64,000 nucleotides of DNA from an uncultured Acidobacteriota bacterium (lineage in GTDB: Bacteria; Acidobacteriota; Blastocatellia; RBC074). This document shows positions 52,068-59,794 of this stretch, piece after piece. Every line of letters begins with the position of its first letter. Positions within the stretch are counted from its first letter, which is position 1. The stretch spans positions 640,001-704,000 of the forward strand of contig CAWCKY010000003.1 in assembly GCA_963796275.1 (NCBI GenBank). The letters are read 5' to 3'. The notes under the pieces are model-generated. The model saw nothing but the letters and a program-made list of their open reading frames with translations, made no database searches and was not told the DNA's origin. The translations under genes were made by a program, and so were the position numbers.

Positions 52068-52180
52068 CCGGCCAAAGAGGCACAGAGACAGAGAGGAAAA
52101 AGTGATTTGCGATTAATCACTAATACCTCTTCTCTCCTATGTGCATCTGGCCAGTCCTTGGCATTCGGGAATTTGAAATT

Positions 52181-53293
52181 ATGCGGACTAGACGAAAACG
52201 GCTGCGAATTTCTCTGGTATTTGTCCTGGCGGCTTTCGTATCGATCGCTCCGAATTTCAGCGCGCAGCAGCGGGCACTTTTCGATGTGATCCCGCTCGGA
52301 CTGCCGGAGGACACCTGGAGGTTCTACGTCCCGAAAAGCAATCCGCTCACCGCAGCGAAGATCGAGCTCGGCCGCAAACTCTTCTTTGACGCCCGGCTTT
52401 CGGCTGACGGCAAAGTATCGTGTTCGTCATGCCACGACCCGAAGTTGGCGTTCACCGATGGCAAAACGATTGCCGAAGGGATAGCGGGCCGGCGCGGGAC
52501 GCGCAATGCCCCTACGCTGCTCAATGCGGTGTTCAACCCCGCGCAATTCTGGGATGGCCGCGCTGATACCCTGGAACAACAGGCAGCCGAGCCGCTCATC
52601 AACCCGCTTGAAATGGGCAATGAATCGCACGATCAAGTGATCAACCGGCTGCGCTCGATCTCCGAGTACCGCGCGGAATTTCAATCCGTTTTCGGGGGTG
52701 AGATTACAATCGAGCGGTACTCTCAGGCAGTAGCTGCATATGAGCGTTCGCTGCTCTCGGGCGATTCACCGCTCGATCGATTTCTCGCAGGAGATGAAGA
52801 CGCGCTCAGCCAGAGCGCCAAACGAGGTTTTGCGATCTTCCGCGGAAGAGGTCGCTGCGCTCGCTGCCACTCTTTCACCGATCAACGACCATTCTTCACT
52901 GATTTCGCTTATCACAACACCGGAGTCGCCGCTTTTCATCCGGAGTTCGACAGACTCGCGCGACAGGCCGCCGCAGCCACGGAAACCGAGCGGGCAAAAG
53001 CCGTCATCGATAAACTCGGCCGCGAGCAAGGCGGTCAGGAATTGGGACGAATTTTGATCTCTTATCAGCTTTTCGATGTCGGCGCCTATCGCACACCGAG
53101 CTTGCGCAATGTGGGCGTCACCGCGCCTTACTTCCACAACGGCAGCGCAAAGACGCTCGCCGATGTGGTCAAGTTTTATAACGGAGGCGGCCGGCATAAC
53201 CCAAATATCGATGAAGAGCTCCACTCGCTGGGGTTGACCGAAGACGAGCAGCGCGAACTGGTGATTTTTTTGGAGTGTTTGACCGGCAGGTGA
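52181..53293 (+). CDS. Di-heme cytochrome c peroxidase (CcpA/MauG family)
   Basis: Two CxxCH motifs (CSSCH, CARCH); LGRKLFFD, RNAPT, QFWDGRA and TPSLRNV...APYFHNG; signal peptide. Confidence 0.92.
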   Translation: MRTRRKRLRISLVFVLAAFVSIAPNFSAQQRALFDVIPLGLPEDTWRFYVPKSNPLTAAKIELGRKLFFDARLSADGKVSCSSCHDPKLAFTDGKTIAEGIAGRRGTRNAPTLLNAVFNPAQFWDGRADTLEQQAAEPLINPLEMGNESHDQVINRLRSISEYRAEFQSVFGGEITIERYSQAVAAYERSLLSGDSPLDRFLAGDEDALSQSAKRGFAIFRGRGRCARCHSFTDQRPFFTDFAYHNTGVAAFHPEFDRLARQAAAATETERAKAVIDKLGREQGGQELGRILISYQLFDVGAYRTPSLRNVGVTAPYFHNGSAKTLADVVKFYNGGGRHNPNIDEELHSLGLTEDEQRELVIFLECLTGR

Positions 53294-53431: not shown

Positions 53432-54298
53432 ATGCTAACGCAATCGCTAAACCACACTTCTTCTCTCTACTCAACGACACGCAATTCAGATTTATCGCAT
53501 CGATCGTTCCGCTCGATTGCGGATTTCCGCAAAGCGAAACTGGATGGGCGCAAGATATCGATGCTCAGCGTCTATGACGCGATCTTCGCTCGGCTTGCGG
53601 TTGAGGCTGGGGCCAACACTCTCCTCGTAGGCGACAGTGTGGCGATGGTTCTATATGGATACGAGAGCACAATTCATGCCACGGTTGAGATGATCGCCTC
53701 GCACGTAGCGGCTGTTCGCCGCGCGTGTCCAGGCGCATTTATAGTCGCTGATCTTCCCTTCGGCTCCTACCGTAGAGGTGTGAAAGCCGCTATGAAGGCT
53801 GTCGAGGCAATGGCGCGCGCCGGAGCTAGCGCAGTCAAACTCGAGGGAGTCGCGGGCAATGAAAAGATCATCTCGCATATCGTTGAATCGGGAATTCCCT
53901 TGATGGGCCACATCGGGCTGACGCCTCAATCTGTGCTTGCGCTCGGAGGGTATAAGGTGCAAGGAGCGACAGAGAAGGGAGCATCCAGGCTCATCGAAGA
54001 CGCCCGAACCCTGGAGGGGCTGGGCGCCTTTTCACTTGTTCTGGAATGTGTAAGCCGCGGCCTGGGTCCACGTATCTCTACTCATCTTTCCATACCGGTC
54101 ATCGGAATCGGAGCCGGCGCGGATGTCGACGGTCAAGTGCTCGTGGTCTCCGACGTCCTCGGACTCTCGCGGGGCCGCTCTCCGCGATTTGTCAGGAAAT
54201 ACATGGATGGTGAGGCTCTGGTGTCAAAAGCGTTCGAAGAATTCTTTCGGCAGATAGACGAGTCGGATTACCCGAACCAGGCCGAGAGCTACGATTGA
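53432..54298 (+). CDS. panB: 3-methyl-2-oxobutanoate hydroxymethyltransferase
   Basis: LLVGDS, ADLPFGSY, AVKLEG, GHIGLTPQ and IGIGAG...DGQVLV motifs. Confidence 0.96.
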   Translation: MLTQSLNHTSSLYSTTRNSDLSHRSFRSIADFRKAKLDGRKISMLSVYDAIFARLAVEAGANTLLVGDSVAMVLYGYESTIHATVEMIASHVAAVRRACPGAFIVADLPFGSYRRGVKAAMKAVEAMARAGASAVKLEGVAGNEKIISHIVESGIPLMGHIGLTPQSVLALGGYKVQGATEKGASRLIEDARTLEGLGAFSLVLECVSRGLGPRISTHLSIPVIGIGAGADVDGQVLVVSDVLGLSRGRSPRFVRKYMDGEALVSKAFEEFFRQIDESDYPNQAESYD

Positions 54299-54309
54299 TC
54301 GGAATTGAC

Positions 54310-55050
54310 ATGACTTCACAGATTCCCGGCAATCATCCGAGAAGGGTTTCGCTCGAGACGAGGACGAGGCTTACGGATGGTGTGCGGCAAGGGATTACAT
54401 CTTTCGATGGACTGATCGCTCATGGAAGAGGCGAGGCGTTTGATTATCTGCTGGGAGAGCAAACGCATGATTTTGCTCTACGTGCGATCGATGCAAGTGC
54501 GGCTGCTCTCCTCCTTGCAGAACGCCCCGTGATTTCAGTGAACGGAAATGCGGCAGCCCTTGTTCCACGAGAAATGGGAATTCTCGCGGAGATTCTCGGT
54601 TCTCCGCTCGAAGTGAACCTCTTTCACGCGAGCCGTGAGCGCGAAATGAAAATTCGCGATCACCTTCTCTCACACGGCGCCCGCCAAGTCCTCTTAGCGG
54701 ATGAGGATTTTGTTATAGGTGGTCTTGATTCCAACCGGCGCCTCGTAAATGGCCAGGGAATATATCGAGCCGATGTGATCTTCGTTCCTCTCGAAGACGG
54801 CGACCGCTGTGAGGCGCTCATTAGGTCCGGACGAAAAGTCATCACGATCGATTTGAACCCGTTATCGAGAACCGCGCGTACCGCCTCGATCACGATTGTG
54901 GATAATATCGTCCGGGCGCTTCCGCTGTTGATAGAACGTGTAAAATCTATTGGTTCGAATTCCCCTTCGATTCTCGAAGATATTATGAAGAAATACGACA
55001 ACAGCCTCACCCTTCGAGAATCAGAAGCGGTTTTACGTGGTAACCGTTGA
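54310..55050 (+). CDS. Archaeal-type 4-phosphopantoate--beta-alanine ligase (phosphopantothenate synthetase, PPS)
   Basis: Family motifs HPRRVSL, GLIAHGRGEAFDYLLGE, PVISVNGN, LEVNLF, VPLEDGDRCEAL, IDLNPLSRT and TIVDNIVRA. Confidence 0.9.
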   Translation: MTSQIPGNHPRRVSLETRTRLTDGVRQGITSFDGLIAHGRGEAFDYLLGEQTHDFALRAIDASAAALLLAERPVISVNGNAAALVPREMGILAEILGSPLEVNLFHASREREMKIRDHLLSHGARQVLLADEDFVIGGLDSNRRLVNGQGIYRADVIFVPLEDGDRCEALIRSGRKVITIDLNPLSRTARTASITIVDNIVRALPLLIERVKSIGSNSPSILEDIMKKYDNSLTLRESEAVLRGNR

Positions 55051-55119
55051 GGCAGGGCGGTATTGGGAGTGGGAGATAACAGTCGGTGAAGTCCATGGAG
55101 CGAACGGAGTGTTGACTCA

Positions 55120-55193
55120 ATGAACGTTTAGAGCTCCGCGGTCAGAAATCAAGCAAAAAAAAGACCGCGTAAACGCGGAACTCCAAACGCATT
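55120..55193. repeat. REP-like inverted pair between PPS and coaX
   Basis: CGTTTAGAGCTCCGCGGTC ... GACCGCGTAAACGCGGAACTCCAAACG, with an internal hairpin CCGCGT-AA-ACGCGG. Confidence 0.55.
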
Positions 55194-55210
55194 AGTTCGG
55201 GGAGGGTTCT

Positions 55211-55981
55211 ATGATTCTTTGCCTGGACGTAGGAAATACGCAGATTTACGGTGGAGTATTCAAAGACAATGCGCTCGCCAGCACATTTCGGAAGAGCTCG
55301 TTAAATGTCGCCTCCTCAGATGAGTTCGGTCTATTTCTCCGTACCGTTCTGCGTGAGAGCGGTTACGATCCACTGGATGTGCGGCAGGTGGCGATCTGCT
55401 CGGTTGTGCCGAACCTGGTCCATTCTCTCCGCGCAGCGTGTCTCAAATACTTCGCCGGCGAACCGTTTCTTCTCCAACCAGGGGTTAAAACAGGACTCAA
55501 GATCAATTATCGAAACCCGATCGAAGTCGGCGCAGACAGGATCGCAAACGCTGTCGGCGCCCTCGATCGATTCCCCGATGAAAATCTAATTATCCTCGAT
55601 CTGGGAACAGCTAGCACCTTTTGCGCAGTCTCTTCCGGGCGCCAATATCTCGGAGGGGCGATTACCGCCGGGCTTCGCATCTCGATGGAAGCGCTCGAAT
55701 CCAAGACGGCTCGCCTGCCCGCCGTCGAAATAATCAGACCGGGGACTGCCGTCGGGCGCTCGACTGTTGAGAGTATTCAATCAGGACTGTTTTATGGGGC
55801 CGCCGGAGCTATTCGTGAGATTACGGAGAGAATGAAAACCGAATGCTTTCAAGGGCAGAATGTGATCGTGATCGGAACGGGGGGGTTCAGCAGGTTATTT
55901 GAGGAAGAGGGACTATTCGATAAGCTGGTTCCGGATCTGGTGCTACACGGTCTTTATGTCATTTGGCGGATGAATTCTTAA
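55211..55981 (+). CDS. coaX: Type III pantothenate kinase
   Basis: [30 protein letters not shown] and GTGG motifs. Confidence 0.93.
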
Positions 55982-56838: not shown

Positions 56839-58152
56839 ATGGCAGGCGTGATGGCCACAAATCAAAAGATTAGATCGAGTGATTATCGTTACCCTGGAGA
56901 ACACCTCTCGCTCGTACTGACCTTCAGCATTCTTATAACTCTCTATATTCTTGCGGCTATCTTTTTCATCGGGACCTGGTTGTCGACTTTGAATACGTTG
57001 ATGTTAACGTTTGCCGGCCTCACTGTTTACATCGTCACAGTCAAGCTCCAACAACGTTCAGCATTCGGCACCCTGGTTCGAGTCGGCCCACGTCAGTTCC
57101 CCGAACTCTATGATTTAGCCTCGGTTGCTGCCGAACGTTTGTCGACTGGGCCGGTCCCCGTCTATGTCAAACGCTCTTCGGAGATGAACATCTATACTCT
57201 AGGTTTTCGAAAGAAGCATTTGATAGTGCTCACATCGTCATTGGTCGATCAGATGGAGCCCGACAACCTGCAATTCTTCATCGGACGCGAGATTGGTCAC
57301 ATACAGGGAGGTCATACGTGGCTCCGAACCTTTCTCAAACCGCTCGGTTCTGAAGTTCCGGTCATCGGAAGGCTGCTAAATAGCGTTATCTTCGGCGATT
57401 GGGTCAACCGCGCTGAATTGACCGCAGACCGGGCCGGCTTCATCGCGTGCCGGTCATTGACTACATCGGTGAGCACCATGCTCAAGTTCGGCATAGGCAT
57501 CAGGTTGTATGAGAAACTCGATATCAAGGAGTTTCTCGGACAGATCGACGAGGTCCGTAATTTTAGCGGGCATCTGACGGAGATTGTCGCCGAGCAGCCA
57601 TATCTGACTCAGCGAGTGCGTGCACTCGTTCGATTCGCCCTGTCCGACCGTTTCTACGCGCTGGTGCCCGATAAACGGGGTTACACGCAGATACTTGAAG
57701 CGATACCTGCAGCTTTCGTATCAACCGGGTTCGATCTGGCCGAGTTCAAGCCGGGGATTGAAAGAACGATTCATTCTAGAGGGAATGTCCTGACGGTCGC
57801 CGATGAGATTGTAACTGCTGTCGAAGAACCCGATGACCTCGATCCAAGTGAAAATGCGCTTGATCCTCGTATGACGCTGGTTGCGGCGGAGGGCGATTCG
57901 ACATACATTCTTCGACGGCATTTCACGCGCATCGGTCGCAACCACGATAATGACATCGTTCTCAACAGCGACCGGGTGAGCAGGTACCACGCCGAGATCA
58001 TGCGTGAGGGTGACGAGATGAAGGTCGTCGATAAGAAATCGCGCAACGGAGTCTGGCTCAATGGTAGAAGGGTCAATGAATCGGCCGTCATCAAGTCGGG
58101 CGATGTGATACGCATCGGGCGAGAAAACCTCACATACACGGAGAAAGATTGA
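56839..58152 (+). CDS. Membrane M48 (Ste24/HtpX-like) peptidase-family protein with C-terminal FHA domain; HExxH altered to RExxH
   Basis: Two N-terminal TM helices; QFPELY, FFIGREIGH and RAELTADRAG; FHA motifs IGRNHDNDIVL...VSRYHA...SRNG. Confidence 0.85.
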   Translation: MAGVMATNQKIRSSDYRYPGEHLSLVLTFSILITLYILAAIFFIGTWLSTLNTLMLTFAGLTVYIVTVKLQQRSAFGTLVRVGPRQFPELYDLASVAAERLSTGPVPVYVKRSSEMNIYTLGFRKKHLIVLTSSLVDQMEPDNLQFFIGREIGHIQGGHTWLRTFLKPLGSEVPVIGRLLNSVIFGDWVNRAELTADRAGFIACRSLTTSVSTMLKFGIGIRLYEKLDIKEFLGQIDEVRNFSGHLTEIVAEQPYLTQRVRALVRFALSDRFYALVPDKRGYTQILEAIPAAFVSTGFDLAEFKPGIERTIHSRGNVLTVADEIVTAVEEPDDLDPSENALDPRMTLVAAEGDSTYILRRHFTRIGRNHDNDIVLNSDRVSRYHAEIMREGDEMKVVDKKSRNGVWLNGRRVNESAVIKSGDVIRIGRENLTYTEKD

Positions 58153-58742
58153 AACTGGCACGATCGACTGATTTGGCAGAGAAAATCCGGGTCCTGGCTG
58201 AAGAATCTATTGAAGCCAAGCGGCTCTTTTTCCAAGAATCGGCAGCGGATGTCGCGTTCGCCGCTCAGATGATTATCGAAAAGATGCGCGCGGGCGGGAA
58301 ACTGCTGATATTCGGAAACGGGGGATCGGCCGCCGACGCACAGCACCTCGCAGCCGAGCTGGCGTTCAAGATGGGGCGGGAACGCGCGGCCCTTCCTGCA
58401 TTGGCCCTGACGACCGATACATCGCTCCTGACCGCGATCAGTAATGACCGTTCGTTCGATTTCGTATTCGCGCGGCAGATACAGGCCCTCGGACGCGAGG
58501 GTGATATCGTGCTTGCGATATCGACGAGCGGAAACTCGCCCAATGTTATCGAAGCCGTCAAAGAGGCGCGAGCTTTGGATATCGCGGTCATCGGGTTATT
58601 GGGCGCGGGGGGCGGGGAGGTCGCGAAACTGGTCGATCTCGCCCTGATCGTGCCCAACCGCGATACTCCGCGTATTCAAGAGGTTCATATCGCAATCGGC
58701 CATATCATTTGCCAGTTGATCGAGGATGAGCTTTGTAATTGA
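58149..58742 (+). CDS. gmhA: D-sedoheptulose 7-phosphate isomerase
   Basis: FGNGGSAADAQH, TAISND, FARQ, ISTSGNSPNV and TPRIQEVH motifs. Confidence 0.95.
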   Translation: MKLARSTDLAEKIRVLAEESIEAKRLFFQESAADVAFAAQMIIEKMRAGGKLLIFGNGGSAADAQHLAAELAFKMGRERAALPALALTTDTSLLTAISNDRSFDFVFARQIQALGREGDIVLAISTSGNSPNVIEAVKEARALDIAVIGLLGAGGGEVAKLVDLALIVPNRDTPRIQEVHIAIGHIICQLIEDELCN

Positions 58743-58821
58743 TAGTTGATAATTGATAGTTGATAGTTCGTATAAATTGTTGCCGTAGTCTATACGAACT
58801 ATCAACTATCAACTATCAACT
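58737..58821. repeat. Inverted heptamer repeat pair (GATAGTT)n / (AACTATC)n forming a long hairpin
   Basis: TTGATAGTTGATAGTTCGTATA, 16-nt loop, TATACGAACTATCAACTATCAA. Confidence 0.9.
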
Positions 58822-58831
58822 GTTTTTTTCT

Positions 58832-59794
58832 ATGTCAAATTATCGCCAAAAACCGATCGATCTTTCGCGCATCTCTACTTATCCTCTGGCTTCGCGCCCG
58901 AGTAAAGTTACGGTGCGCGATTTCGCGAGCGCTTTGAGTGATGAGCAAGCGCGGGGCGCCGCCGCATTACTCGATTCGATGCCGCATATTCTCACGGCGG
59001 ATTCAATCCGTGCGGTTGCATCTGAAATCGCACAGGCAAGAGCGAAAAATCGCGCAATCATTTGGGGCATCGGCGGGCACGTGATCAAGACCGGCCTTGC
59101 GCCGATATTGATCGACCTCATGCGGCGAGGGTTTATTACTGCGATAGCTATGAACGGTTCGGGCGTGATTCACGATTTTGAGATCGCGATTGCGGGTTGG
59201 ACTTCTGAAGATGTCGAAAGTGGGCTGGCTACCGGAGAGTTCGGAATGGCAGATGAGACGGGGCGACTGATAAACGAAGCGATCAAACGCGGTTTCAAAG
59301 ATGACTGTGGGATCGGCGAATCGGTAGGATGCGCACTGGCCGACCTTAATCCCCAGTACCGACAATTTTCGCTTCTCCACGAAGCTTATAAGGCGCGAAT
59401 CCCGATCACGGCGCACATCACTATCGGTGCGGATATCGTTCACATCCATCCGGAGGCTGACGGCGCCGCCATCGGTGCGGCGTCATATCGCGATTTTCTC
59501 TTATTCACCTCGCTCGTTAAAGAGCTCGATGGCGGCGGGATATATCTCAACGTGGGCTCGGCGGTGACGATGCCGGAAGTCTTTTTGAAAGCCGTGACCG
59601 TCGTGCGAAACCTGGGCCATTCGCTAAAAGATTTCACGACGGCCAATTTCGATTTCATTCAGCATTACCGGCCATCGGCCAACGTAGTGCGAAGACCAGT
59701 GGCCAATGGCGCGGGGCGCGGATATAGCATCACAGGGCATCACGAGATTATGATCCCGCTTTTGTCGGCGGCGGTAATTAATTGTGCGAATTAA
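58832..59794 (+). CDS. Conserved hypothetical protein, probably deoxyhypusine-synthase-like NAD-binding fold
   Basis: GGHVIKTG, MNGSGVIHDFEIA, IGADIVHIHP, NVGSAVTMPEVFLKA and GHHEIMIPLL motifs. The fold call is an inference. Confidence 0.6.
   Translation: MSNYRQKPIDLSRISTYPLASRPSKVTVRDFASALSDEQARGAAALLDSMPHILTADSIRAVASEIAQARAKNRAIIWGIGGHVIKTGLAPILIDLMRRGFITAIAMNGSGVIHDFEIAIAGWTSEDVESGLATGEFGMADETGRLINEAIKRGFKDDCGIGESVGCALADLNPQYRQFSLLHEAYKARIPITAHITIGADIVHIHPEADGAAIGAASYRDFLLFTSLVKELDGGGIYLNVGSAVTMPEVFLKAVTVVRNLGHSLKDFTTANFDFIQHYRPSANVVRRPVANGAGRGYSITGHHEIMIPLLSAAVINCAN

Follow-up and report, generated by a model that had tools for sequence, protein, structure and literature searches.

A panB–PPS–coaX operon in Blastocatellia as a candidate pantoate kinase-independent route to 4'-phosphopantothenate

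Here we describe a three-gene operon for coenzyme A (CoA) synthesis in a 64,000-nucleotide stretch of DNA (hereafter the window) from an uncultured soil bacterium of the Acidobacteriota (Blastocatellia, RBC074; assembly GCA_963796275.1, contig CAWCKY010000003.1, positions 640,001 to 704,000 of the forward strand). The operon carries a ligase of the archaeal phosphopantothenate synthetase (PPS) family between panB and coaX. Its gene content and that of related genomes point to a probable route to 4'-phosphopantothenate that uses PPS and CoaX and is independent of pantoate kinase (PoK). Whether condensation precedes or follows phosphorylation on the way from pantoate to 4'-phosphopantothenate has been treated as a marker that sets bacteria and eukaryotes apart from archaea. 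The genome from which the window derives is 9.46 Mb in size and consists of seven contigs, with a completeness of 94.7% and a contamination of 5.2%.

All three genes lie on the plus strand. The first, panB (53432..54298; 288 amino acids), encodes ketopantoate hydroxymethyltransferase (PF02548, 311.4 bits; TIGR00222, 275.3 bits against a cut-off of 207.55), and AGGAGG is located 10 nucleotides (nt) 5' of its ATG. The second (54295..55050; 251 amino acids from a TTG start) encodes the PPS, a member of the 4-phosphopantoate–beta-alanine ligase family (PF02006). With the TTG start this gene overlaps panB by 4 nt; with an ATG at 54310, the more likely start judging by its better fit to the alignment with a solved PPS structure (PDB 3WDK), the two genes are separated by 11 nt. 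The third, coaX (55211..55981; 256 amino acids), encodes a protein of the type III pantothenate kinase (PanK) family (PF03309, 222.6 bits; NF009855, 320.7 bits against 233). Each gene is present in one copy in the genome (by tblastn for panB and coaX). A preliminary description of this DNA had reported three co-oriented genes at these positions; the open reading frames (ORFs) were found there, with profile matches above curated cut-offs.

PPS and coaX are separated by a spacer of 160 nt (55051..55210), as against approximately 9 nt in the related cassettes at loci L009 and L010. The spacer contains a hairpin and GGGGAGGG. The latter is located 5' of the coaX ATG, so that coaX has its own GGGGAGGG. 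The hairpin (CCGCG-TTTA-CGCGG, 55165–55178) is GC-rich, is preceded by A8 and resembles an intrinsic terminator on the minus strand only. Between the three genes, scans of the plus strand gave no sigma-70-like or terminator-like sites beyond the level of shuffled sequence.

The PPS is a clear member of its family (PF02006, 227.3 bits against a cut-off of 26.4; NF010324, 329.8 bits against 227). Its score with the archaeal PPS equivalog model NF041123 is 295.5 bits, 4.5 bits short of the cut-off of 300. This shortfall is not specific to PPS linked to CoaX, because a bacterial PPS linked to PoK (L069) also falls short, at 289.7 bits. Residues 9–242 align with the solved PPS of T. kodakarensis (PDB 3WDK, 222.7 bits; approximately 222 bits also to PDB 4MB0). 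All motifs are aligned, and the three that the preliminary description had quoted are present in the translation at the matching places.

The operon recurs as a unit. The panB–PPS–coaX order, whose conservation the preliminary description had raised as a question, is kept in six Blastocatellia genomes (the window, L008, L009, L010, L101 in G171 and L102 in G170) and in a Bdellovibrionales metagenome-assembled genome (MAG; L074), the PPS of which is 58% identical to that of the window. Two of these triads belong to the window's own family, one in the same genus (G170) and one in another (G171). The Blastocatellia MAGs L008–L010 (PPS 73–76% identical) and L074 are the four triads among the 80 loci from the best 80 of 508 relatives in a PPS scan of species-representative genomes. 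Another MAG, G190, has a coaX–PPS pair without the triad order. PF02006 was found in none of 150 other Blastocatellia genomes sampled across the class. All of these genome counts are samples of relatives, and related genomes are not mutually independent.

Pairs of Blastocatellia cassettes that were unsaturated (dS 0.3–0.66) yielded ratios of non-synonymous to synonymous substitution (dN/dS) of 0.10–0.14 for PanB, 0.10–0.18 for PPS and 0.07–0.08 for CoaX (0.06–0.08 overall); the three genes are under purifying selection. The genes that flank the window's cassette have no counterparts within approximately 5 kb of the cassette in L008–L010. Given the conserved trio, the changing flanks and the low dN/dS, the three genes therefore travel and stay together. 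In the window, the neighbours are a MauG/MbnH-like di-haem peroxidase (52139–53293), a fusion of an M48 peptidase with a C-terminal FHA domain (56839–58152) and a GmhA-like SIS protein followed by a GSU2086-family protein (58149–59794; NF052581, 416.5 bits).

The background into which the cassette came was examined in a family sample of 30 relatives (G163 among its rows), in which panB is present in 7, coaX in 13, panC in 27 and coaA in 18 (17 above cut-off). One subgroup has panC and coaA and lacks panB and coaX. A second has coaX and lacks coaA; five of its genomes carry a panB–panC pair, with PanB 44–47% identical to that of the window. The cassette genomes fall in the first subgroup, which is otherwise devoid of panB and coaX; each of the six from Blastocatellia has both panC and coaA. 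By gene content, the cassette landed in a background in which it supplies the only PanB. Many relatives, including genomes that are 96–100% complete, likewise have panC and coaA and no panB, by the Pfam model and by protein query alike. They thus retain panC in the absence of the first enzyme of pantoate synthesis, a pattern that hints at salvage of pantoate or at a ketopantoate hydroxymethyltransferase that has gone unrecognised.

The operon frame was examined through CoaX. Among 400 other Acidobacteriota genomes (the phylum sample, with G224, G248 and G342 among its rows), 304 have a match to the window's CoaX at E ≤1e-40, with bimodal identities. Only two, G506 and G457, carry a CoaX at 58% identity, the next best being 46%. 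Both are single-contig genomes of 98–99% completeness in which this CoaX is the last gene of a panB–panC–coaX operon (L134 and L135; PanC, TIGR00018, 239–250 bits), and PF02006 was found in neither. We built trees of CoaX (48 rows) and PanB (19 rows) by a quick method, with SH-aLRT support only. In the CoaX tree, the eight PPS-linked and two PanC-linked proteins form one clade (support 100, stem 1.4), outside of which lie the other Acidobacteriota CoaX, those of the window's own family included; the two PanC-linked proteins group as sister (89) to the CoaX of the Blastocatellia cassettes. In the PanB tree, the cassette PanB joins the PanB of the panB–panC–coaX operons (99), not that of the family's own panB–panC pairs. 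The two trees are congruent, and the panB–X–coaX frame is therefore inherited as a unit, in which X is either PanC or PPS. On these trees, the place taken by PPS is precisely that of panC. The preliminary description had placed it there from gene order, and the nearest relatives of PanB and CoaX outside the cassettes do lie in panB–panC–coaX operons. A PPS-family ligase would thus have replaced panC inside this frame.

The PPS tree does not resolve the three CoaX-linked lineages as one clade, and they may have a single origin. Two members, L074 and L120, are on long branches, as are PPS from their order that are linked to PoK. The lineages are only 46–57% identical to one another. Of 69 sites that are at least 95% conserved among 77 other PPS, all are retained in the Blastocatellia consensus, 68 in L074 and 62 in the long-branched L120.

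Elsewhere in the genome, an intact panC adjoins folK on contig 6 (496345–497172; PF02569, 320.6 bits; TIGR00018, 295.9 bits against 212.75), and coaA, for a type I PanK, is found on contig 1 (291944–292864; TIGR00554, 478 bits). With panC, coaA and coaX, the genome has the genes by which the canonical bacterial pantothenate synthetase (PS)/PanK pathway is recognised. It also encodes CoaBC and two ORFs of the ApbA/PanE reductase family; a profile search of the genome found no PF02261 aspartate decarboxylase. The preliminary description had stated that panC was missing, which is true of the locus only; panC and coaA both lie outside the window. With these two conserved genes in the genome, the PPS module runs alongside a pair of the bacterial order and is not the sole route. 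Contamination was considered as the origin of panC and coaA and rejected: their contigs are 2.9 Mb and 1.3 Mb in size, with a G+C content like that of the rest of the genome (0.534–0.550 across all seven contigs). The sole coaBC matches, on contig 3 (292673–293918; L091 and L092), come in two pieces in different frames, of which one covers model positions 3–44 (292673–292798) and the other positions 42–391 (292791–293918); from its sequence, this split near the 5' end stems from a frameshift or from an indel in the assembly. Directly 5' of coaA on contig 1 lies npdG, a homologue of NADPH-dependent F420 reductase (L090:615–1394; TIGR01915, 224.6 bits against 149.8).

The preliminary description had also noted the lack of a pantoate kinase, and here it holds for the whole genome. 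The best match to the PoK model NF040725 is 16.1 bits, on thrB. Our own PoK hidden Markov model (HMM), built from five PoKs encoded next to PPS, reaches at best 11.1 bits (E 0.64) over 69,376 six-frame ORFs. True PoKs score 128–511 bits with these two models, and our own gives 247–511 bits in 31 of 82 PPS loci. A PoK hidden among the genome's six GHMP kinases (galK, galK-like, ispE, thrB, mevalonate-kinase-like and heptose-kinase-like) was considered and rejected; the last two were ruled out by their PDB matches, which are mevalonate and sugar kinases.

We next consider which kinase accompanies PPS in other bacteria. Eight PPS-bearing genomes from other phyla (Methylomirabilia, Latescibacterota (two), Gemmatimonadaceae, Verrucomicrobiota, Poribacteria and two unclassified) all encode PoK (128–153 bits), and in seven of the eight no panC and no CoaX was seen. 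The sole exception on both counts is the Methylomirabilia MAG (G155; L038 and L097–L099), which has PoK–PPS together with coaX and a panC in three pieces on one contig (88.6, 36.1 and 21.6 bits); it looks caught between the bacterial and archaeal routes. In the order to which G154 belongs, PPS is present in 5 of 31 genomes, none of which has panC. Three of the five encode PoK (102–118 bits) directly 5' of PPS and no CoaX. In the other two, CoaX adjoins PPS, as panB–PPS–coaX in G154, the Bdellovibrionales MAG, and as coaX–PPS in G190. No PoK was found in G154 or G190, their only weak GHMP matches being homoserine kinases (thrB), and a profile search of these two MAGs found no panC. G154 has no CoaA. 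It has a second coaX (L130; contig 28, 4278–4883), which belongs to the ordinary clade and is on a long branch (1.7). Across the 19 PPS-bearing bacterial genomes examined, PoK is present in 11 and a PPS-adjacent CoaX in 8, and no genome has both. This alternation is observed directly in the gene content, as is the operon frame.

Two side observations concern PoK itself. In a Nanoarchaeia MAG (L020:3977–6004), a 675-residue ORF directly 5' of PPS is a fusion of CoaBC (TIGR00521, 384.7 bits, residues 3–397) with PoK (NF040725, 154.8 bits, residues 404–655). In metagenomes, a PoK–PPS–panB order recurs (for example, L175, L190, L213, L221, L222, L225, L232, L234–L237 and L242), in which panB lies 3' of PPS, the reverse of its position in the window's operon.

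It could be argued that the genome runs an ordinary bacterial pathway (PanB, KPR, PanC and CoaA/CoaX), and that PPS is a passenger, redundant or otherwise used, that arrived with the transferred panB and coaX, with the gaps in G154 and G190 reflecting incomplete MAGs. The window's genome does contain intact panC, coaA, coaX and panB as well as an ApbA/PanE-family reductase, panC and coaA occur in each of the six Blastocatellia genomes with the cassette, and G154 and G190 have no completeness figure. However, purifying selection was seen in all comparisons, every conserved PPS site is kept, and the trio stays together while its flanks change. Moreover, random gaps in MAGs would not produce an alternation of PoK and CoaX in which the two never share a PPS locus in any of 19 genomes, and both independent CoaX-linked MAGs lack panC and PoK. 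We therefore regard a passenger PPS as unlikely. An intact panC accompanied by an inactive PPS had been named at the outset as an outcome that would speak against a PPS route. The first half was found; the second was not, given a PPS dN/dS of 0.10–0.18 and 69 of 69 sites kept.

The proposed route is as follows. The panB–PPS–coaX cassette, a mobile and selected operon, would convert pantoate derived from 2-oxoisovalerate to 4'-phosphopantothenate with neither PanC nor a GHMP pantoate kinase; that the PPS–CoaX pair suffices for this, and in which order its two steps run, we infer from the sequences. Two orders come into question, since either CoaX would act on pantoate or PPS would accept unphosphorylated pantoate. 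The preliminary description had posed this same choice, and it proves to be the right question in view of the missing PoK, the PPS in the panC slot and the lack of both PoK and panC in G154 and G190.

We tentatively favour the order in which phosphorylation comes first. The cassette CoaX would phosphorylate pantoate to 4-phosphopantoate, which an unaltered PPS would then condense with beta-alanine, so that a bacterial kinase of the ASKHA fold would stand in for the archaeal GHMP kinase. This order is favoured because PPS shows no relaxation across lineages that are 46–57% identical and because all PPS partners belong to one distinct CoaX clade. The conservation of all 69 sites, together with the aligned motifs, implies that the apparatus that recognises phosphopantoate has not been relaxed. 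We also count in its favour that G154 keeps the clade CoaX next to PPS despite having an ordinary-clade CoaX as well. Characterised archaeal PPS, studied by Yokooji et al. in 2009, is reportedly inactive on unphosphorylated pantoate, and the T. kodakarensis enzyme is said to lack PS activity.

In the opposite order, PPS would act as a pantothenate synthetase on unphosphorylated pantoate in place of PanC, and an ordinary CoaX would pull the reaction forward. PPS occupies exactly the panC slot, and PanB and CoaX are congruent with those of panB–panC–coaX operons. CoaX differs from its PanC-linked relatives at one specific position of 256, and the PanC-linked CoaX are nested among the PPS-linked ones. 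The Pfam/NCBIfam name of the family is itself 'phosphopantothenate/pantothenate synthetase'. At PPS position 178, methionine is present in 88% of the 77 other PPS and is replaced in the eight CoaX-linked ones by serine (seven) or tryptophan (one), although M178 is not invariant in PoK-linked PPS either. The evidence on the other side comes from PPS and PanC. PPS keeps all 69 conserved sites, and the three CoaX-linked lineages lose none apart from scattered changes in L120. In the window's genome, a PS isozyme would do no more than PanC already does, yet purifying selection acts on both. In favour of condensation first, an M. mazei homologue, in work by Ronconi et al. in 2008, is said to have complemented an E. 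coli panC mutant and to have formed product in vitro solely in a coupled reaction with E. coli PanK; on either reading, this experiment would be the closest precedent for the joint synthesis of 4'-phosphopantothenate by a PPS-family enzyme and a bacterial PanK. Overall, we consider condensation ahead of phosphorylation possible and only slightly less likely than the reverse.

An orthodox PPS might also receive 4-phosphopantoate from some other kinase, neither GHMP nor CoaX, such as CoaA, a type I PanK. Many pantothenate analogues are tolerated by enzymes of this type, and each of the six cassette genomes from Blastocatellia encodes CoaA. However, G154 lacks CoaA, and it is CoaX, not CoaA, that adjoins PPS in eight of eight cases and in two gene orders, which makes a third kinase very improbable.

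Several findings weigh against the proposed PPS–CoaX route or its phosphorylation-first order. The same genome has coaA and an intact panC under selection (dN/dS 0.06–0.09 in cassette genomes); with both present, nothing forces the PPS–CoaX pair to be sufficient here. PPS–CoaX linkage is rare: of 80 metagenome PPS loci, 46 have PoK in their flanks and none has CoaX. (One of these metagenome loci is cassette-like, with panB–PPS 75% identical on a contig that ends 105 nt past PPS.) The two genomes without panC and PoK, G154 and G190, are MAGs for which no completeness figure is available. The cassette CoaX is orthodox (325.7 bits to the solved type III PanK 3DJC and 214 to 2H3G), and on the tree it nests among PanC-linked CoaX that must be pantothenate kinases; relatives encoded 3' of PanC fit pantothenate as its substrate. 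The only residue specific to all eight PPS-linked CoaX is F226 (leucine or isoleucine elsewhere), and D138C and the loss of Y197 are common to PPS-linked CoaX and their PanC-linked relatives. Specificity-determining positions were tried as an arbiter and set aside, since M178S/W and a few partial changes in PPS together with F226 in CoaX carry too little signal to settle which step comes first. Neither PPS nor CoaX looks altered; both being orthodox in sequence, at least one of them must be promiscuous.

With respect to known systems, the window's PPS belongs to the same ligase family as that of the archaeal PoK/PPS route (T. kodakarensis TK2141/TK1686; approximately 222 bits to its solved PPS), and PPS is linked to panB in many PoK–PPS–panB loci as it is in the window. 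Unlike in that route, the window's genome lacks a GHMP pantoate kinase, PPS has a bacterial type III PanK as its neighbouring kinase, and panC and coaA coexist with PPS. The bacterial panB–panC–coaX operons of G506 and G457 share with the cassette the frame, the gene order, the PanB clade (99) and the CoaX clade (100). By contrast, the middle gene of the cassette encodes a PF02006 ligase, which has no homology to the cytidylyltransferase-fold PanC and the normal substrate of which is phosphorylated pantoate.

PoK and PPS have been reported in sponge-associated Poribacteria (Entoporibacteria) that lack PS and PanK, in a study that describes the coexistence of the two pathways as not previously described (Thomes and Lescure 2020, PMC7883664). 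The archaeon Picrophilus torridus, with a bacterial-like type I PanK as given in two reports (PMC7883664, PMC6650551), likewise mixes the two domains in the segment from pantoate to 4'-phosphopantothenate. Unlike the window's genome, it is not a PPS + PanK hybrid, as one of these reports gives both PoK and PPS as missing in Thermoplasmatales (Shimosaka et al. 2019, PMC6650551). A full-text literature search, with most subscription papers outside its reach, found no description of a PPS–CoaX pairing. The enzyme families are known; judged by the genes, what is new is their combination, that is, PPS with CoaX and without PoK, in the panC slot and here alongside PanC and CoaA.

The cassette shows PPS paired with a bacterial type III PanK in place of PoK, PPS and PanC coexisting under selection in one genome, and a ligase swap within a conserved operon frame. 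For the organism, the cassette would have been acquired by a genome with panC and coaA and without panB, to which it would have brought the sole PanB and a second route beside PanC/CoaA. Be it CoaX or PPS that accepts the unusual substrate, the specificity of that enzyme would be wider than current annotation assumes, which affects automated calls of 'CoA pathway incomplete' or 'archaeal pathway' and the view of type III PanK and PPS as strict enzymes. We suggest, with some reserve, that the CoaX clade of panB–X–coaX operons includes true pantoate kinases, which would make the route chimeric and kinase-first, mobile among soil bacteria and able to coexist with PanC/PanK. If so, these kinases, of the ASKHA fold as opposed to GHMP, would represent a second, non-homologous answer to the pantoate kinase step.

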